Virus record (IMG/VR): IMGVR_UViG_2695420687_000012
DNA: 11,134 nucleotides
From: a virus
Lineage: Duplodnaviria; Heunggongvirae; Uroviricota; Caudoviricetes
Strand: one strand, 5' to 3'
The notes beneath the pieces are model-generated. The model was not told where the DNA came from and searched no databases. It saw only the letters and a program-made list of their open reading frames with translations. The position numbers and the translations under genes are program-made. This document shows, piece after piece, positions 2,916 through 11,134 of the stretch. Numbering within the stretch: the stretch's first letter is position 1; every line of letters begins with the position of its first letter.

Positions 2916-2926
2916 NCNNNGNNGGT

Positions 2927-3367
2927 ATGTCAATACATCTCGCTATTGCCGATGGCGGCAACCAGGGATATTTCGATTACACATCACAGCATAACGTCAT
3001 TATGTGGAGATGGCTGATCGCAACAGTATTCATGCTGGAAATGAGAGAGGAAAACGGCACTGTCAGCATCATTGATGATACTGGCAATCCTTCCGAAGTG
3101 GCTGTTTATTCCAACGGCATCGTCGCCATGCCGCTGTATCCAGTAGCAGAGCGCCTCGCTATGGCAAACAACATTGAGGGCGCGATGATAGAACGTTTTG
3201 GCATCGAGTCTGGCACAGAACGCGCCATCATTTTCTACAGAGCCATGATGGATGTGGAACAAGGAGCACTGACTCCATTTGGTCGTGAAACGCTTGCTGA
3301 ACTTCACAACAGCTTTATAGCTGAACTGAATGAAAACGGCATGCCAGCGGAACCAGTGACGCACTGA
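2927..3367 (+). CDS. Hypothetical protein, first gene of the element operon (5' end uncertain)
   Basis: Track ORF of 146 aa with a protein-like composition. The frame is open upstream into the N-run at 2916-2924, so the ATG at 2927 may not be the true start. Confidence 0.5.
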   Translation: MSIHLAIADGGNQGYFDYTSQHNVIMWRWLIATVFMLEMREENGTVSIIDDTGNPSEVAVYSNGIVAMPLYPVAERLAMANNIEGAMIERFGIESGTERAIIFYRAMMDVEQGALTPFGRETLAELHNSFIAELNENGMPAEPVTH

Positions 3368-3377
3368 GGATGGATCC

Positions 3378-3719
3378 ATGATTACTAAAAATTTCCGACT
3401 GAATGCGCTGGCAAATAAGTATGCGTCGGCACTGTATAACCACATTACCTCCACCAGCGGCTGGGACTATTTCATGGTTGATGCGGACGGCGAGGCCGTC
3501 CGTGTGGAAATCGTCAATGGAGTAAAAGGCGTTCGCAGCCTGATCGATAGCTACACACTGGCAGCCATGAAAGTGTTCTACCCGCAGTGGGAAACCGTGG
3601 GGATAGAGCTTCTTGATCGTTGCGTCACTAAGGACGGATTGACTGACGTCGGGCGTGAGATATGGCAAAGCATGGTTAATGACATGGGCGCAACTGTAGC
3701 GGGAGGTTCTCATGCGTGA
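3378..3719 (+). CDS. Hypothetical protein (113 aa)
   Basis: Track ORF; GAGGA Shine-Dalgarno at 3365-3369 about 9 nt before the ATG; begins 10 nt after the upstream stop and overlaps the next ORF by 8 nt. No motif I recognise. Confidence 0.6.
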   Translation: MITKNFRLNALANKYASALYNHITSTSGWDYFMVDADGEAVRVEIVNGVKGVRSLIDSYTLAAMKVFYPQWETVGIELLDRCVTKDGLTDVGREIWQSMVNDMGATVAGGSHA

Positions 3720-4083
3720 AAATGCAGAAATGGCGCTTAGCTCCGCAATCGGAGAGCAGGTGGCAAAGATTGCTGGCGCTGTGTGGATTCATAACCTTCA
3801 TTCTACTGGTGAAGAGAAAATGGCAATTCAGACGCCAGAGGGACGCACCATTACTACATCTCTGAAGGCGTCAGATGTTTGTGATCTGATTTGCGCATTC
3901 ATGTACCCAGCAATGAGGACTGTCCACGGCGATAAGTGGAAACTTGCGACAACCGCTGAATTTGATATGTGGCTAAACAATGATGGCATGCTGACTGATT
4001 ACGGAATAACCAAGTGGCAGATGCTGGTTAGCCATATCGCAAACGCTATAGACCACGTGGGGTACGGTGATGCGAAACATTGA
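3712..4083 (+). CDS. Hypothetical protein (123 aa)
   Basis: Track ORF; GGGAGG Shine-Dalgarno at about 3699-3704; its 3' end overlaps the primase start (4067/4070), suggesting translational coupling. Confidence 0.6.
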   Translation: MRENAEMALSSAIGEQVAKIAGAVWIHNLHSTGEEKMAIQTPEGRTITTSLKASDVCDLICAFMYPAMRTVHGDKWKLATTAEFDMWLNNDGMLTDYGITKWQMLVSHIANAIDHVGYGDAKH

Positions 4084-6826
4084 TCTTATCCGTCAGGTTA
4101 TCAGTGCGTCTGAAAACAACTGGCCTCATGTGCTGGGCTGCCTGAACATAAATGTCCCTGACTCTCCGCGCCGTCATGCTCCCTGCCCTGCATGTGGGGG
4201 CAAAGATCGATTCCGGTTCGATGACAACGGGCGCGGTAGCTTCATCTGTAATCAGTGCGGCGCTGGTGATGGACTGGATTTAATTAAACGCGTAAATAAC
4301 TGCGACACAACAGAGGCGGCGCTTCTTGCCGCTGATGTTCTGGGTATTGATTACCGGACAACGGAAACACCAGAAGCCACCAGCCAGAAACGGGAACAAC
4401 TGGAAACCGAGCGCCAGCGACGCGAACAGGAGCGCCTGAAAAGGGCAGAGAAGGACGAACAACAAAGACGGGATACGTTTTCCCGTCAGTTTGATGACAT
4501 GCGCAGAAAGGCTGTAAACGGCAAATCTGATTATCTGGTTGCGAAAGGGGTAGGTGATTTTACATTCCCCGTGTTGCCCGATGGATCTCTGTTGCTGGCG
4601 CTGGTGGATAAATCCGGCGCAGTAACAGCAGCACAGACTATTACCTCACATGGTGAAAAAAGACTCCTGACAGGTTCAGCAAAGCGAGGGGCATATCACG
4701 CCATAAACGCACCAGAAACAACACAGAGCATCTTAATCGCAGAAGGGCTGGCAACGGCATTATCTGCCCATTTAATTCGTCCAGAGGCGCTGACAGTGGC
4801 GGCGATTGATGCCGGGAACCTGTTATATGTCGCCCAGGTACTGCGGGATAAATTTCCTTCAGCACAAATCATCATTGCTGCGGATAACGACCACAGCGAA
4901 GGAAGACAAAACACGGGGAGAATAGCAGCAGAAAAAGCAGCTTTATCTGTTTCTGGATGGGTGGCATTACCCCCGACAGATCACAAAGCAGACTGGAATG
5001 ATTACCACCAAAAACACGGCATTAAATGCGCCACAGAAGCGTTCAATAAGTCAATGTACCAACCACAGGGTAATGGCGTGAAACAGGAGCCACAGACCAT
5101 TGAGGGAAGCGATTTTAAGGTTATGGATACCGACCCACTGAAACCAAGAATAGAAAGCCGCGAGGATGGTATTTATTGGGTATCTCCGAGAGCTGACAGC
5201 CAGAGTGGAGAAATCATCAATAACGAAAGCTGGTTATGTTCTCCGTTAAGCGTTATCGGTACTGGCAGAGACGATAAAGACCAGTATCTCATTCTTCGCT
5301 GGCTGTCGTTTGGTTCTGAAACGCCGACAACCGCTGCCATTCCACTGGCTGATATTGGTGAACGTGAAGGATGGCGCACACTTAAAGCTGGTGGGGTAAA
5401 TGTCACGACCAAAAGCAGCCTCAGAGCAATACTGGCAGACTGGCTACAACGCAGTGGCTCTCGTGAATTGTGGCGTGTTGCTCATGCCACTGGCTGGCAA
5501 TGCGGAGCGTACATCATGCCTGATGGGGAAATCATCGGAACACCTGAAAATCCTGTGCTGTTCAGCGGGAGAAGCTCAGCCGCAGCCGGATATACCGTCT
5601 CAGGGAGCGCGAAAAGCTGGCGTGATAACGTGGCGCGTCTGGCCTTTGGTAACTATTCAATGATGACCGGGATCGGCGCAGCACTGGCAGCGCCATTGAT
5701 TGGGCTGGTGGGCGCTGACGGGTTCGGCATTCATTTCTATGAGCAGTCGAGCGCAGGTAAGACCACCACGGCAAACGTGGCGAGCAGCTTATACGGCAAC
5801 CCTGATTTACTGCGGCTGACGTGGTACGGAACCGCGCTGGGGCTGGCAAATGAAGCTGCCGCCCACAATGACGGACTAATGCCGCTTGATGAAGTTGGTC
5901 AGGGCGCTGATCCTGTCAGTGTGTCACAGTCTGCCTATGCGTTATTTAACGGTGTAGGGAAACTGCAAGGCGCTAAAGATGGTGGAAACCGGGATCTAAA
6001 ACGCTGGCGTACAGTGGCAATCAGCACCGGAGAAATGGATTTAGAAACATTTATCGCTACTTCCGGGCGAAAAACCAAAGCCGGGCAACTGGTGCGACTG
6101 CTGAATATTCCGTTGAGTAAAGCAGTACGCTTTCACGATTACCAGAACGGAAAACAGCACGCAGACGCACTGAAAGACGCTTACCAGCATCACCACGGCG
6201 CAGCCGGGCGTGAGTGGATTAAATGGCTGGCAGACCACCAGCAACAGGCAATTAAAACTGTTCGTGACTGCGAAAGCAGATGGAGAAGTCTGATCCCATC
6301 CGATTATGGTGAGCAGGTTCACCGTGTAGCCGCGCGATTTGCCATTCTGGAGGCCGCATTGCTGTTAGGCGAGGTTGTAACAGGCTGGGATGCTCAGACA
6401 TGCCGTGATGCGATACAGCACAGCTATAACGCATGGTTGCGCGAGTTCGGCACAGGTAACAAAGAACATCAGCAGATTATTGAACAAACGGAGGCATTTC
6501 TTAATGCCTATGGGCTTAGCCGTTTTGCACCATTTCCATACAGCCCGGCAGATTTGCCCATCAAAGATTTAGCCGGATACCGTCAGCGTGGAGAACATGA
6601 CGAAAGCCCAATGATTTTCTACACATTCCCGGCCACATTTGAAAAGGAGATCGCATGTGGTTTCAACGCAAAACAGTTTGCTGAAGTGTTGAAAAAAGCC
6701 GGGATGCTAACCCCACCAAACAGCGGTCGTGGATACCAAAGAAAATCACCACGTATTCAGGGACGACAAATAAACGTTTATGTACTCAATTACCAGCCAG
6801 GAGATTACAACTCATCTGAAGAATGA
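4067..6826 (+). CDS. Replication primase/helicase-like protein: N-terminal zinc ribbon, P4-type TOPRIM primase, C-terminal P-loop NTPase (DUF927-like)
   Basis: 919-aa track ORF (GTG at 4067 or ATG at 4070). CPACGG...CNQCG zinc ribbon at about 4186-4261; a highly charged helix (ERQRREQERLKRAEKDEQQRRD); IAEGLATA at about 4739-4759, matching the EGYATA-type motif of P4 alpha primase; acidic AADNDHSEG at about 4876-4902; Walker A-like SSAGKTT at about 5747-5767; Walker B-like LMPLDEV at about 5875-5895. Confidence 0.85.
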   Translation: MMRNIDLIRQVISASENNWPHVLGCLNINVPDSPRRHAPCPACGGKDRFRFDDNGRGSFICNQCGAGDGLDLIKRVNNCDTTEAALLAADVLGIDYRTTETPEATSQKREQLETERQRREQERLKRAEKDEQQRRDTFSRQFDDMRRKAVNGKSDYLVAKGVGDFTFPVLPDGSLLLALVDKSGAVTAAQTITSHGEKRLLTGSAKRGAYHAINAPETTQSILIAEGLATALSAHLIRPEALTVAAIDAGNLLYVAQVLRDKFPSAQIIIAADNDHSEGRQNTGRIAAEKAALSVSGWVALPPTDHKADWNDYHQKHGIKCATEAFNKSMYQPQGNGVKQEPQTIEGSDFKVMDTDPLKPRIESREDGIYWVSPRADSQSGEIINNESWLCSPLSVIGTGRDDKDQYLILRWLSFGSETPTTAAIPLADIGEREGWRTLKAGGVNVTTKSSLRAILADWLQRSGSRELWRVAHATGWQCGAYIMPDGEIIGTPENPVLFSGRSSAAAGYTVSGSAKSWRDNVARLAFGNYSMMTGIGAALAAPLIGLVGADGFGIHFYEQSSAGKTTTANVASSLYGNPDLLRLTWYGTALGLANEAAAHNDGLMPLDEVGQGADPVSVSQSAYALFNGVGKLQGAKDGGNRDLKRWRTVAISTGEMDLETFIATSGRKTKAGQLVRLLNIPLSKAVRFHDYQNGKQHADALKDAYQHHHGAAGREWIKWLADHQQQAIKTVRDCESRWRSLIPSDYGEQVHRVAARFAILEAALLLGEVVTGWDAQTCRDAIQHSYNAWLREFGTGNKEHQQIIEQTEAFLNAYGLSRFAPFPYSPADLPIKDLAGYRQRGEHDESPMIFYTFPATFEKEIACGFNAKQFAEVLKKAGMLTPPNSGRGYQRKSPRIQGRQINVYVLNYQPGDYNSSEE

Positions 6827-6851
6827 GCTTCTTCATGTGCGTAGAAAAGGC

Positions 6852-6962
6852 GTTGGTTCAGTTGGTTCAGTTGGTTCAATTTGTAAAGAGTATTGTTTTA
6901 TAAGGATTTTATTCTTTTTATTGAACCAACACTGAACCAACAACACGGTATTTTGAACCAAC
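6852..6962. repeat. Iteron array, putative origin of replication: 3 tandem GTTGGTTCA, AT-rich spacer, 3 inverted TGAACCAAC
   Basis: Perfect 9-mers at 6852-6860, 6861-6869 and 6870-6878; an AT-rich stretch at 6879-6921; reverse-complement copies at 6922-6930, 6933-6941 and 6954-6962 (11 and 21 bp apart, roughly helical phasing). Lies immediately 3' of the primase gene. Confidence 0.65.
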
Positions 6963-7012
6963 ACAATGTGACTGAATTGATGCGCACAACACCTGGCTGG
7001 CATCAGAGAGTG

Positions 7013-7088
7013 TTTTACGAGACTTTCGTAAAATCCTGTGTACAAGGGCGTGACGTTTTTGAAAGTGAGCACTACGAAATTTTCGTAG
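7013..7088. promoter_or_regulatory. Two related palindromes sharing a TTTCGTA / TACGAAA half-site; possible operators
   Basis: TTTTACGA-gactt-TCGTAAAA at 7013-7033 and CTACGAAA-T-TTTCGTAG at 7072-7088, about 55 bp apart, between the iterons and the terminator. Confidence 0.3.
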
Positions 7089-7282
7089 TTCAGAAAACAG
7101 CCCCTGAGAAGTTGTTATGCCTGTTCAGCAAACCATCCGCATAGCTGATCGCGAATCAAATTACCAATGGAGCCAGAAGCAAGGGCAGAACTGAAAAGCG
7201 CCTGCCGTGAAGAGTAATGCGACACCATAAATATAGTTTTTAGAGTCCATAAAAAACCTGTCAAAACCTGACACACAGAACG

Positions 7283-7315
7283 ATGCCACCAGCTACTGAG
7301 CGGTGGCATTTTTTT
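7283..7315 (+). terminator. Rho-independent terminator
   Basis: atgccacc(7283-7290) / ggtggcat(7302-7309) stem, 11-nt loop, then a T-run at 7309-7315. Confidence 0.6.
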
Positions 7316-7348
7316 GTGCTATCTGTTTCATATTTTGCAATTACTATG

Positions 7349-7397
7349 ATGAATATTGCGATTTGTGAAACTATAATAACTGTTGTTTTATACAGTT
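7349..7397 (+). promoter_or_regulatory. Promoter of the small-gene cassette with an overlapping LexA-type (SOS) box
   Basis: Perfect -10 TATAAT at 7372-7377 with a weak -35 upstream. Directly after it, aaCTGTtgttttatACAGtt (7378-7397) has the CTGT-N8-ACAG geometry and AT-rich centre of the E. coli LexA consensus TACTGT(AT)4ACAGTA, covering the likely transcription start. Shine-Dalgarno AAGGGGG at 7400-7406. Confidence 0.5.
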
Positions 7398-7410
7398 ATA
7401 AGGGGGCGTT

Positions 7411-7572
7411 ATGGCTATTTCAGTAAAGCCGGTATTGATAAGTGAGAAGCAAATGGAAGCGATAAAGAAAATTCAGGAAGAGCAGCGTAAAAAATCAGGA
7501 ATTGGAGTAGCGCCAACTCTGCATGAAATTGCACGAGGGTTAATAGATAAGGCGCTGGCAGGCTGTATGTGA
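7411..7572 (+). CDS. Small hypothetical protein (53 aa), possibly a small DNA-binding regulator
   Basis: Below the track's 60-aa cutoff; hand translation gives MAISVKPVLISEKQMEAIKKIQEEQRKKSGIGVAPTLHEIARGLIDKALAGCM. Strong Shine-Dalgarno; first gene after the LexA-box promoter. The strand-plus-two-helix pattern is suggestive of a ribbon-helix-helix fold but unverified. Confidence 0.5.
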   Translation: MAISVKPVLISEKQMEAIKKIQEEQRKKSGIGVAPTLHEIARGLIDKALAGCM

Positions 7573-7588
7573 AAATGGATGGCATCGC

Positions 7589-8050
7589 ATGGAACTAAAA
7601 TTTATTGATAACCCTGTGCGATTACAGGCCTTTCTTAACGAGCCTGGCAATACCGAAAATATTGTTGAGCCGGGGCACACGTACTACATCAAGCCTGATG
7701 CGGTATATCTCGGTATCTACGAAGGATTGGTGCTGGCTGGCGTTCATGAAGTGCGTAACTTCTGGCATAGCATTGTTGAATGCCATGCGGTGTACGACCC
7801 CGGATTCCGTGGTGAATATGCACTACAAGGGCATCGATTATTCTGCAAATGGCTTCTCGAAAACTCACCATTCCTTAACAGCATCACCATGGTTCCTGAC
7901 ACAACGAAATACGGACGGGCAATTATCCGTTTGCTTGGCGCTACCCGTGTTGGTCACCTTGATGATGCTTATATCAGATGTGGTAAACCCGTCGGCGTAA
8001 CGCTTTATCAGTTAACTCGGCAACAATATAAGGAATTCAGCGAATGTTAA
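7589..8050 (+). CDS. Hypothetical protein (153 aa), no family recognised
   Basis: Track ORF MELKFIDNPVRLQAFLNEPGNTENIVEPGHTYYIKPDAVYLGIYEGLVLAGVHEVRNFWHSIVECHAVYDPGFRGEYALQGHRLFCKWLLENSPFLNSITMVPDTTKYGRAIIRLLGATRVGHLDDAYIRCGKPVGVTLYQLTRQQYKEFSEC; globular composition with several conserved-looking Cys/His. The overlapping track ORF 7605..8000 is a low-complexity alternative frame. Confidence 0.6.
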   Translation: MELKFIDNPVRLQAFLNEPGNTENIVEPGHTYYIKPDAVYLGIYEGLVLAGVHEVRNFWHSIVECHAVYDPGFRGEYALQGHRLFCKWLLENSPFLNSITMVPDTTKYGRAIIRLLGATRVGHLDDAYIRCGKPVGVTLYQLTRQQYKEFSEC

Positions 8051-8197
8051 TTACCCATATAGCTCATAAATATCTCAATCGTGCCGTATACGAAAAAGGC
8101 GGTGATGGTGGTGCCTCTAAAGCTCAGGCGAAGGCCCAGCAGCAGGCAATTGATTTGCAGCGCGAGCAGTGGAATACGGTGATGAATAATCTCAAGC
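8044..8197 (+). CDS. Hypothetical protein, 5' part only (cut at the N junction 8198-8199)
   Basis: The start overlaps the upstream stop (ATGTTAA). MLITHIAHKYLNRAVYEKGGDGGASKAQAKAQQQAIDLQREQWNTVMNNLK: a Gly-rich segment followed by an Ala/Gln-rich helix. The track ORF 8044..8325 continues across the N's in the wrong frame into fadM and REP sequence. Confidence 0.45.
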
Positions 8198-8199
8198 NN

Positions 8200-8369: not shown

Positions 8370-9065
8370 TTACTTCAATCCGGTCTTCTGTTTCATCGCC
8401 GCCATCACCGCCGGTTTATCGGCCAGATAATGATTCAACCCGTTGGCGCGTAAGTTACACGCTGCACAATGGCCGCAACCGTCGCCTTTTATGCCGTTGT
8501 AGCAGGTCAGGGTTTCGCTACGCACTAAATCCAGCTTGCCGTAATAATCCGCCAGCGCCCAGGTTTCTGCTTTATCAATCCACATCAGCGGCGTTTCAAA
8601 ACGAATATCTTTCGCCATACCCAGACTGACGGCGTGGTTCAACGCTTTCACGAATTCATCGCGGCAATCCGGGTAGCCGGAGAAATCTGTTTCGCAGACA
8701 CCGGTAATCACAGCTTCTGCCTTCACCTGATACGCATAAATTGCTGCCAGAGTCAGGAATAAAATATTGCGCCCCGGCACAAAGGTATTAGGAATTCCAT
8801 CGGCGTCGGGTTCATAATCGGGCACCGGAATACTGTCACGCGTCAGGCTGCTGACAGCCAGTTGGTTAAGCAGCGTCACATCCAGCACTTTATGCGCGCG
8901 CGCGCCCAGTTTCAGCGCCAGCTCGCGAGCGACGTCTATCTCTGCGCGATGGCGCTGACCGTAATCAAACGTCACGCAATGGACTTCATCGTATTGCTGT
9001 AATGCCTGCACCAGACATGTGGTGGAATCCTGGCCTCCACTGAACACAACGACAGCACGTTTCAT
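8370..9065 (-). CDS. queC: 7-cyano-7-deazaguanine synthase QueC
   Basis: 231-aa track [23 protein letters not shown]...[35 protein letters not shown], near-identical to recalled E. coli QueC, including the SGGxDS PP-loop and C-terminal Cys cluster. Confidence 0.9.
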
Positions 9066-9990: not shown

Positions 9991-10002
9991 NCGGCNNNAN
10001 TN

Positions 10003-10548
<546 letters not shown>

Positions 10549-10846
10549 TTACATCTTGATAACTTAGATGAAAATATTATTCAACATAGAGTTTTTTATG
10601 GTGAGCTGGCTCACACCTCCCTGACGCTGCGGGAATATAGCGTCTTTAGTATCTCCTGCTAAACGCGCTTTTTATCCAGCAGAAAATTCCACTCTGGAGC
10701 GGATTATTGGCACTCCGATAATAAGAAATCGCAAAGAAAAAAATTCTCCGGCGACGCGGTTTTTAACCCGTGTTCTATGCTTGAAATGAGGTCCTCCACA
10801 CAGAGAGTACCGACAACAATGAGGTGCGCGTATGNCNNCGNTGNNN

Positions 10847-11134
10847 CTGGCTTCATAGGTTGGGCGGTTGCCGCTGGTGGTGGTGGCGCGACGGATTGCC
10901 ATAAATGACTGCGCTATGTCGGTGTGTCCGGCGTCAAACTCCAGACGACGGTGACTGATAATGTCGTAGGCCTTGAGTACCAGGGCGTTTTTAACGTTGG
11001 GGTTGTAGACAAACTCCCGGACGGCTGGAAAAAACGCTTTCACGTTCTCGTAAACCCCGTGGCCGACACCTGTCGAGTCGATGCCGATGTAGGTTACGTT
11101 GTACTGCTCGGTCAGNGTNNACCGAGAAAATGGC
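10847..11134 (-). CDS. Phage protein fragment with an RNase H-like IGID motif, possibly a terminase large-subunit nuclease domain; open to the window end
   Basis: Minus-strand frame ...TEQYNVTYIGIDSTGVGHGVYENVKAFFPAVREFVYNPNVKNALVLKAYDIISHRRLEFDAGHTDIAQSFMAIRRATTTSGNRPTYEA, cut at the N-run 10835-10846. The track ORF 10672..11043 is this frame read across the junction. Confidence 0.35.

Follow-up and report, generated by a model that had tools for sequence, protein, structure and literature searches.

A domain family encoded directly upstream of the replication initiator in EcCIMP1-type phage satellites, and its probable kinship with P4 Cnr

We analysed a stretch of 11,134 nucleotides that is recorded as a virus of the Caudoviricetes (IMG/VR record IMGVR_UViG_2695420687_000012); the whole stretch, at its full length, is called the window here. 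At 2927-4083 it carries three small open reading frames, ORF1, ORF2 and ORF3 (the trio), immediately upstream of a primase-helicase gene, within a piece (2924-8197) that is assigned below to the EcCIMP1 family of phage-inducible chromosomal islands (PICIs), which are phage satellites. The three ORFs are genuine genes. Profile comparisons show a single domain of ~100 aa, with a predicted helix/beta-hairpin/helix fold, that makes up ORF2, ORF3 and the C-terminal half of ORF1 as tandem diverged paralogues, and in almost all related satellites examined a member of this family occupies the position just before the gene of whatever replication initiator is used. We favour, at a probability of about 0.45, the reading that the trio proteins are accessory or regulator proteins of satellite replication initiation, comparable to Cnr of satellite P4.

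The element has been published and its trio genes are annotated as hypothetical. The EcCIMP1 study leaves them as such, without function, paralogy or likeness to Cnr (Pick, Stadel & Raivio 2025, PMC11773190). New here are the recognition that the trio is a single domain family, that this family marks the pre-initiator slot across satellite types and that it is probably related to P4 Cnr.

Organisation of the three genes

The features of the region, all on the plus strand, are as follows.

2927-3367, ORF1 as it stands in the ORF list, 146 aa
2924..3367, 3' part of ORF1, residues 54-200 of a 200-aa protein, the frame being open to 2924
2990..3337, C-terminal domain of ORF1, residues ~76-191, matched to the domain of ORF2 and ORF3
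3378..3719, ORF2, 113 aa, predicted single-domain alpha/beta protein
3712..4083, ORF3, 123 aa, paralogue of ORF2
3366..3380, ORF1 stop (3365-3367), Shine-Dalgarno motif GAGGA and ORF2 start, read from the sequence
3702..3719, GGAGG and the ORF3 ATG inside the last codons of ORF2, read from the sequence
4057..4083, primase ribosome-binding region and start inside the last codons of ORF3, from the sequence and the RefSeq start
4070..6826, primase-helicase with Zn_Ribbon_Prim, Toprim_3 and DUF927 domains, from Pfam and PHROG 1139, homologous to P4 alpha in its N-terminal 345 aa

An earlier note on this DNA, made from the letters alone, had described ORFs of 146, 113 and 123 aa packed closely together, the last overlapping the primase start, and both coordinates and sequence confirmed this arrangement. 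A gap of 10 nt separates ORF1 from ORF2; the GAGGA motif (3366-3370) shares bases with the ORF1 stop and precedes the ATG at 3378 by 7 nt. ORF2 and ORF3 overlap by 8 nt, with GGAGG (3702-3706) placed 5 nt 5' of the ATG at 3712; the 3' end of ORF2 reads ...GGAGGTTCTCATGCGTGA, so that the Shine-Dalgarno motif and ATG of ORF3 fall inside its final five codons. The overlap of ORF3 with the primase gene is 14 nt when counted from the RefSeq start (ATG 4070) or 17 nt from GTG 4067, which is also possible, and the primase start is embedded in the final codons of ORF3 (...GGTGATGCGAAACATTGA). Ribosome-binding sites and start-stop overlaps of the trio are conserved. The C-terminal tails GG-x-HA of ORF2 and GYGDAKH of ORF3 are likewise conserved in the joint ORF2/ORF3 alignment (A1), because the overlaps make these tails dual-coding.

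The note had also suspected that ORF1 was truncated at its 5' end, and rightly so. Its frame is open upstream to base 2924, where a joint at 2916-2923 cuts the gene, and its 146 residues are identical, 146/146, to the C-terminus of the 200-aa protein WP_001058740 of Escherichia coli 042; ATG 2927 is therefore the internal Met55 and not the true start. Alignment with related elements, as proposed at that time, recovered the missing 5' part of ORF1 (as the 200-aa protein) together with the upstream genes.

All three genes are under purifying selection. Ratios of nonsynonymous to synonymous substitution rates (dN/dS), determined against copies 37-96% identical, were 0.11-0.27 for the set, being 0.11-0.27 for ORF1, 0.14-0.22 for ORF2 and 0.12 for ORF3 as compared with its Kluyvera orthologue. 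Among 5426 complete E. coli genomes, 252 have the full trio, and ~300 further ones carry ORF1 only or ORF1 plus ORF2 at 84-87% nucleotide identity. Homologues occur in Enterobacterales only, and none of them has a name (550 clusters for ORF1, 129 for ORF2 and 15 for ORF3). An exhaustive search of 1.84 billion representative proteins with an ORF2/3 profile hidden Markov model (HMM) returned 63 clusters only, thus no large named family stands behind ORF2 and ORF3.

The earlier note could recognise none of the three proteins, and profile and structure searches agreed with it, as no family emerged from Pfam, NCBIfam, PADLOC or PDB. ORF1 matched PHROG 1515 and ORF2 matched PHROG 37628, both of function unknown, and ORF3 had no PHROG match. 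Searches of ORF1-3 against Pfam, NCBIfam, PADLOC and PDB sequences gave nothing meaningful, with sub-threshold noise only in NCBIfam and PADLOC (E-values 0.017-0.11, 11-13 bits), and the Pfam search found none of the Bro-type domains ORF6N, Bro-N, KilA-N, AntA, ANT, Ash and pRha in them. Full-length ORF1 is strongly acidic (isoelectric point, pI, 4.35; net charge -21); ORF2 and ORF3 are mildly acidic.

A shared domain in ORF1, ORF2 and ORF3

BLASTP aligned ORF2 with ORF3 from end to end (E 2e-4, 97 columns), and in the joint alignment L55 and W71 are invariant and A18, G92 and W96 near-invariant. The kinship of ORF1 was harder to establish. First-pass profile comparisons, made with alignments of low diversity, were non-significant both for ORF1 against ORF2/3 (E 0.03) and for Cnr against ORF1 (E 0.04-0.08), and such comparisons became informative only once phage and metagenome relatives and a bridging family of ~121 aa had been added. 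The members of this 121-aa family are found in phage CharmingMan, a Klebsiella prophage, phage phi467 and one metagenomic island. With diverse profiles, residues 86-189 of ORF1 matched residues 17-108 of ORF2 directly (hhalign P 4e-4, probability 35%). The 121-aa family matched the ORF1 family over ORF1 76-191 (probability 94%, P 1.2e-7) as well as the ORF2/3 family over ORF2 14-107 (probability 79%, P 1.6e-5). Since the bridging family matches both, we regard the paralogy of ORF1 with ORF2/3 as settled at the level of profiles. A natural ORF1-ORF2 fusion protein (P0271) is also known.

The AlphaFold2 model of ORF2 is confident (predicted local distance difference test, pLDDT, 91.2; predicted template modelling score, pTM, 0.83) and consists of a helix (6-27), a hairpin (31-44), two helices (48-67 and 71-82), a mini-hairpin and a last helix (90-109). 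The ORF1 model is of moderate quality (pLDDT 73), and in both models the secondary-structure elements follow one another in the same order. Foldseek comparison of the ORF2 model with PDB and BFVD, and of the ORF1 model with PDB, yielded no match (best E 0.19 or TM 0.37); for ORF1 this negative result is weak because of the moderate model quality. ORF1 thus consists of an N-terminal beta-rich domain of ~75 aa followed by the shared domain, and ORF2 and ORF3 of the shared domain only.

Conservation of the slot before the replication initiator

All satellite relatives whose downstream gene is readable have a member of the superfamily formed by these families either directly 5' of the gene for the replication initiator or separated from it by one small gene. 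Overlap of the two genes, by 4-29 nt, is usual; among the directly adjacent pairs the exception is L159, which has no overlap. The loci compared are listed below.

L001, L002 and L160, island copies with a superfamily member directly 5' of the initiator gene
L005, 8001-8945, P0287 (314 aa), an ORF6N N-terminal half joined to an ORF2-like C-terminal half, overlapping a DUF927 primase gene by 29 nt in an int-AlpA-pRha-Ash island
L008, 3021-3762, ORF2-family gene overlapping an initiator gene of HTH_36/DnaD_N type by 8 nt
L009, ORF2-like gene alone
L151, a 122-aa bridging gene, an ORF1-like and an ORF2-like gene
L153, ORF2-like gene 5' of a primase gene
L154, ORF2-like gene 5' of a DUF927 protein without the Toprim part
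L155, ORF2-like gene, with one 73-aa gene between it and the primase gene
L156 (Kluyvera), ORF3 orthologue alone
L158, 5217-7992 (E. coli), ORF1 and ORF2 5' of a P4-family primase gene
L159, 4842-8213 (E. coli), ORF1 alone, before a primase 99.8% identical to that of the window
L160, 4789-7498 (E. coli), the trio, before a Toprim and DUF5906 protein that over its first 344 residues shares 86% identity with the window primase
L161 (Salmonella), ORF1 and ORF2

Four initiator architectures occur downstream, namely Toprim with DUF927, Toprim with D5_N/DUF5906/Pox_D5 (the P4 type), DUF927 alone, and HTH_36/DnaD_N. The last of these, in L008, extends the association beyond primase-helicases. In L160 the initiator has the same Zn-ribbon/Toprim N-terminus as the window primase, with a DUF5906 helicase in place of DUF927. 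Thus, the number of domain copies ranges between one and three and helicase modules are exchanged, yet the slot before the initiator stays occupied. A fixed block of three is not what the relatives carry, as ORF1 alone, ORF3 alone or ORF1 plus ORF2 can stand before the primase gene.

Probable relationship to P4 Cnr

P4 has epsilon, orf151 and ORF106 5' of its alpha gene. ORF106 (106 aa), which we take to be cnr, the gene for copy-number regulation, is the founding member of Pfam DUF5375. Cnr reportedly restrains P4 replication as a negative regulator that acts through alpha. We compared 38 P4-like loci of different species, drawn from loci L012-L147. ORF106/DUF5375 lay 15-18 nt 5' of alpha in all 38; orf151 was detectable in 8 of the 38 and epsilon in 7. 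The placement of ORF106 fits the published statement that the family including cnr sits between epsilon and alpha in 90% of P4-like elements (PMC8628076).

The earlier note had likened the trio to the small-gene block that precedes alpha. In kind the analogy stood, and it goes beyond mere position, the N-terminal Zn-ribbon/Toprim part of the primase being 33% identical to alpha. The counterparts that it named (orf151, epsilon and eta) did not stand: P4 orf151, epsilon, the ORF of the cI region (eta/kil region) and orf88 had no similarity to the trio families (hhalign P > 0.16), epsilon in particular giving P 0.21-0.33 against both families. A relative of orf151 was rejected on these values. 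No trio protein matched Pfam Phage_ASH or Derepression (PF10554, PF25738), and with no hhalign similarity either, an anti-repressor of the epsilon/Ash type was also rejected. An anti-repressor, which the note had named for the P4 block, has no sign among the trio; the Ash and AntA/AntB homologues of the island are encoded further upstream, beyond the window.

Of the P4 proteins, ORF106 alone, from the slot directly 5' of alpha, gave detectable similarity. Profiles of DUF5375 matched the ORF1 family (hhalign P 0.009), the whole superfamily (P 0.0023) and, best, a combined profile of the ORF1 C-terminal domain and the 121-aa family (P 3.6e-4, probability 37%, 88 columns covering Cnr residues 10-100), a match that is weak but consistent and spans the full length. 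When the HMM of the ORF1 C-terminal domain was run in a decoy search against 5501 real ORFs, taken from all the loci retrieved, nearly all the matches next after the family members were DUF5375 proteins (E 0.04-0.5), and none of the unrelated ORFs ranked above them. Among 5000 shuffled Cnr sequences, one attained the median real score. The three pairwise alignment registers are mutually consistent, and precomputed Pfam results list DUF5375 matches for some ORF1-family proteins, graded 'weak' or 'faint' only. A scan of viral contigs with P4 ORF106 returned near-identical copies only and added no diversity. Taken as a whole, these profile results make it fairly probable that the ~100-aa domain is homologous, as a distant relative, to Cnr/DUF5375.

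The element, its primase and the putative origin

E. coli islands match the piece 2924-8197 at 99.6-99.9% identity; the piece is matched in part in 1019 of the 5426 complete E. coli genomes and over at least 80% of its length in 234. The island of E. coli 042, flanked by yicC and dinD, carries in this order the genes of an integrase, a hypothetical protein, an AlpA-type helix-turn-helix (HTH) protein, another hypothetical protein, AntA/AntB, DUF4222 and Ash, then three tiny ORFs, ORF1 (200 aa), ORF2, ORF3, the TOPRIM/DUF927 primase, a 53-aa ORF, DUF2824, a P22 gp7-like protein, ejection proteins, a reverse HTH gene and PerC. EcCIMP1 of E. coli MP1 has the same gene order, and its trio proteins, annotated as hypothetical (WP_001058743.1, WP_000628966.1 and WP_001208877.1 for ORF1, ORF2 and ORF3), are identical to those studied here at 198/200, 112/113 and 121/123 residues. 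Near-identity to E. coli islands, the same gene order and the near-identical trio proteins place the piece 2924-8197, as judged from sequence, in the EcCIMP1 family of PICIs. In the EcCIMP1-type order it spans ORF1 to the gp7-like gene, the rest being present in the complete copies of 042 and MP1. Experiments have shown that EcCIMP1 is excised and transduced only in company with its helper Kapi1, a P22-like phage, and alpA is its master regulator (PMC11773190).

The earlier note's view of the region as the small-gene block of a satellite early operon, translationally coupled to the primase, is borne out by the overlaps and by the identity of the satellite. It had also placed the promoter and regulators in the missing 5' part, and complete copies do carry int, AlpA, a hypothetical gene, AntA/AntB, DUF4222, Ash and the three tiny ORFs there. 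A promoter/terminator scan of 2924-8197 found no internal sigma-70 promoter on the plus strand.

Residues 7-361 of the window primase align with residues 5-339 of P4 alpha at 33% identity (E 1e-40), and the Zn_Ribbon_Prim and Toprim_3 domains are common to both, which indicates that the N-terminal Zn-ribbon/Toprim part is homologous to that of alpha. Following the primase stop, a repeat search and the GC profile revealed a putative replication origin at 6852..6964. Three direct GTTGGTTCA iterons with 9-bp spacing (6852-6884) face three inverted copies (TGAACCAAC, 6921-6964) across an AT-rich spacer, and the intergenic region 6826-7410 is of low GC throughout (~0.40). This iteron array is probably the origin of replication; in Gram-negative PICIs the ori is situated downstream of pri (PMC10111431).

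Further 3', a conserved basic ORF of 53 aa (7411-7572; WP_001018524.1 in both E. coli 042 and MP1) is followed by a DUF2824/PHROG 651 'head morphogenesis' protein (7589-8050) and by the start only of a P22 gp7-like ejection protein (8044-8197), cut by a junction. This satellite thus has P22-type ejection-protein genes of its own.

The window as a whole is a mosaic of unlinked E. coli fragments with seven short, N-sprinkled joints, at 38-44, 2262-2265, 2916-2923, 8198-8199, 9991-10002, 10835-10846 and 11116-11120. The pieces outside 2924-8197 are E. coli chromosomal genes, mutually unlinked, and include the following, all on the minus strand. An Rfam search of the window gave no match.

936-1385, QueD/PTPS
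1737-1910, end of gnd
2266-2809, YadA-stalk adhesin
8370-9065, QueC
10003-10509, DadA-like N-terminus

Possible function of the trio

In the reading that we favour, the trio belongs to the early rightward operon, at the border of its 'Bro' zone and the replication module, and is co-transcribed and translationally coupled with the primase-helicase, which would give a fixed protein ratio. These small acidic paralogues, which do not look like DNA-binding proteins, would then modulate the primase-helicase or a host replisome partner at the downstream iteron origin, and control of copy number or of timing after helper induction would be a possible outcome. As the family precedes initiators of four architectures, its target may be a common feature or a host replisome protein, and not one initiator domain. 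Any physical interaction, and the sign of its effect on replication, we infer.

Several observations weigh against a Cnr-like role. Genes of the ORF1, ORF2 and 121-aa families also occur in a few temperate phages, in the early operon running from cI to int and away from replication genes, and in one relative (P0287) the domain is fused to ORF6N, a DNA-binding domain of the Bro network. A primase 99.8% identical to that of the window is preceded by ORF1 only (L159), and ORF2 and ORF3 are therefore not obligatory partners of the primase. Evolution of the small proteins outpaces that of the primase by a factor of 2-3 in two of three element pairs. P4 Cnr, unlike the trio with respect to its own primase, is more conserved than alpha, the median identity across genera being 89% for ORF106/DUF5375 as against 78% for the N-terminal 300 aa of alpha. 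The gathering score of PF17345 (DUF5375) was reached by no trio protein, ORF1 being taken at full length, nor by any of 27 ORF1-family members; ORF2/3 gave no signal when compared directly with DUF5375, and the ORF2 model had no match among the BFVD viral models in Foldseek. Adjacency to the initiator could also be inherited operon order instead of function.

The last point leads to the strongest alternative, that the trio are 'Bro-zone' effectors directed at the helper phage or the host, with primase adjacency a matter of operon history only. Possible roles would be those of partners of AntA/AntB and Ash in helper sensing or derepression, of interference with the helper, or of EcCIMP1 superinfection immunity against Kapi1. 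The phage loci are in line with it. In the P2-like phages EKP1 (L148, 4989-6669) and phi467 (L157, 7009-8533) the accessory cI-to-int operon contains, in this order, an ORF1 homologue, an ORF6N protein and an ORF2 homologue, the latter 60-63% identical to ORF2. EKP1 is recorded as an Elizabethkingia phage; its relatives are enterobacterial. Other temperate phages have only ORF1 and 121-aa homologues in that operon, and in CharmingMan and a Klebsiella phage the ORF1 homologues are followed by ORF6N-type, anti-repressor or DNA-binding genes. The P0287 fusion, a dN above that of the primase, the variable copy number and a near-identical primase that does without ORF2 and ORF3 point the same way. 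So does the superinfection immunity against Kapi1 that EcCIMP1 confers, behind which there is no known defence system (PMC11773190), and PADLOC was negative for the trio. An effector role is nevertheless unlikely in our judgement. Direct 5' adjacency to, and overlap with, initiators of four architectures is poorly explained by inertia alone, and the family is nearly absent from phages, ORF2 being present in 2 of 50,697 phage records and ORF3 having no homologue among them. Moreover, the trio resembles neither P4 epsilon nor Ash nor any other known anti-repressor, and dN/dS of 0.11-0.27 gives no sign of diversifying selection.

A broader proposal, quite speculative and less likely again, would unite ORF2/3, the ORF1 C-terminal domain, the phage 121-aa family and P4 Cnr/DUF5375 in an undescribed 'initiator-proximal' superfamily of satellites and some temperate phages. 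Its one to three copies before whatever initiator is used may, as the partner initiators differ in architecture, act on a shared host replisome component or on helper replication and not on the initiator, and it might perhaps be the factor behind EcCIMP1 immunity to the helper.

Improbable, in turn, is a function of ORF1, perhaps also of ORF2 and ORF3, in which an acidic protein would mimic DNA or inhibit a nuclease (to counter restriction, or RecBCD as Gam/Abc do) and so shield replicating or incoming satellite DNA. The pI of 4.35 and net charge of -21 of full-length ORF1 would suit it, as would the early-left operon in which ORF1 homologues are found in phages, the usual place of such genes. 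However, neither sequence nor fold comparison gave a match to ArdA, Ocr, Gam or an entry of PDB (the fold negative being weak for ORF1, at pLDDT 73), and the acidity of ORF2 and ORF3 is no more than mild.

A two-gene toxin-antitoxin or abortive-infection module made of ORF2 and ORF3 is very improbable. It might be suggested by two small overlapping genes and by very weak matches to CcdB (E 0.11) and to defence models (E 0.02-0.03). A toxin and its antitoxin normally come from different families, so the paralogy of ORF2 and ORF3 fits such a pair poorly; with ORF2 or ORF3 also occurring alone in relatives, and all matches far below threshold, the pair was rejected. Chance frames or decayed pseudogenes, for which only the truncation of ORF1 (an assembly artefact of the window) could speak, have practically no likelihood and were rejected in view of amino-acid conservation across genera, dN/dS of 0.11-0.27, the confident AlphaFold2 model, and conserved ribosome-binding sites and start-stop overlaps.

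Significance and comparison with known systems

A large fraction of enterobacterial genomes harbours satellites of P4, PICI or 'Type C' kind, and to our knowledge control by a satellite of its own replication is known only for P4, with Cnr and alpha. If the trio is Cnr-like, P4 and EcCIMP1-type islands would have kept a common replication-control slot even though helicase modules were exchanged, and several hundred 'hypothetical' genes would gain a role that can be tested. Nature supplies a ready series of variants as test material, with ORF1 only (as in E. coli 510016), ORF3 only (as in Kluyvera), ORF1 plus ORF2, all three, or an ORF6N fusion. The practical stake is modest, as the element and its genes are already in databases and the proposed function is an ordinary one; it is a testable advance and not a surprise.

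Among known systems, EcCIMP1 of MP1 is closest, with essentially the same trio proteins in the same order, the window copy being cut within ORF1. The Bro-network proteins of Gram-negative PICIs are domain-swapping proteins built from ORF6N, Bro-N, AntA, Ash and pRha (Mageeney et al. 2023, PMC10111431). The trio lies at the distal edge of the 'Bro zone', and one relative has the ORF2-like domain joined C-terminally to ORF6N; unlike those proteins, the trio lacks a Bro-type N-terminal DNA-binding domain and goes with the replication gene, not with the variable Bro genes. P4 epsilon (Ash, helper derepression), orf151 and eta occupy the same kind of early operon between regulator and primase, without detectable similarity to the trio. 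P4 ORF106 differs in that the trio comprises three diverged copies, one with an extra N-terminal domain, and the helicase part of the window primase is DUF927, not D5_N/Pox_D5. Like ORF106, the trio proteins are small and are encoded in the early operon of a satellite of enterobacteria, immediately 5' of the gene for a Zn-ribbon/Toprim primase-helicase, and the primases encoded downstream are homologous, at 33% identity.

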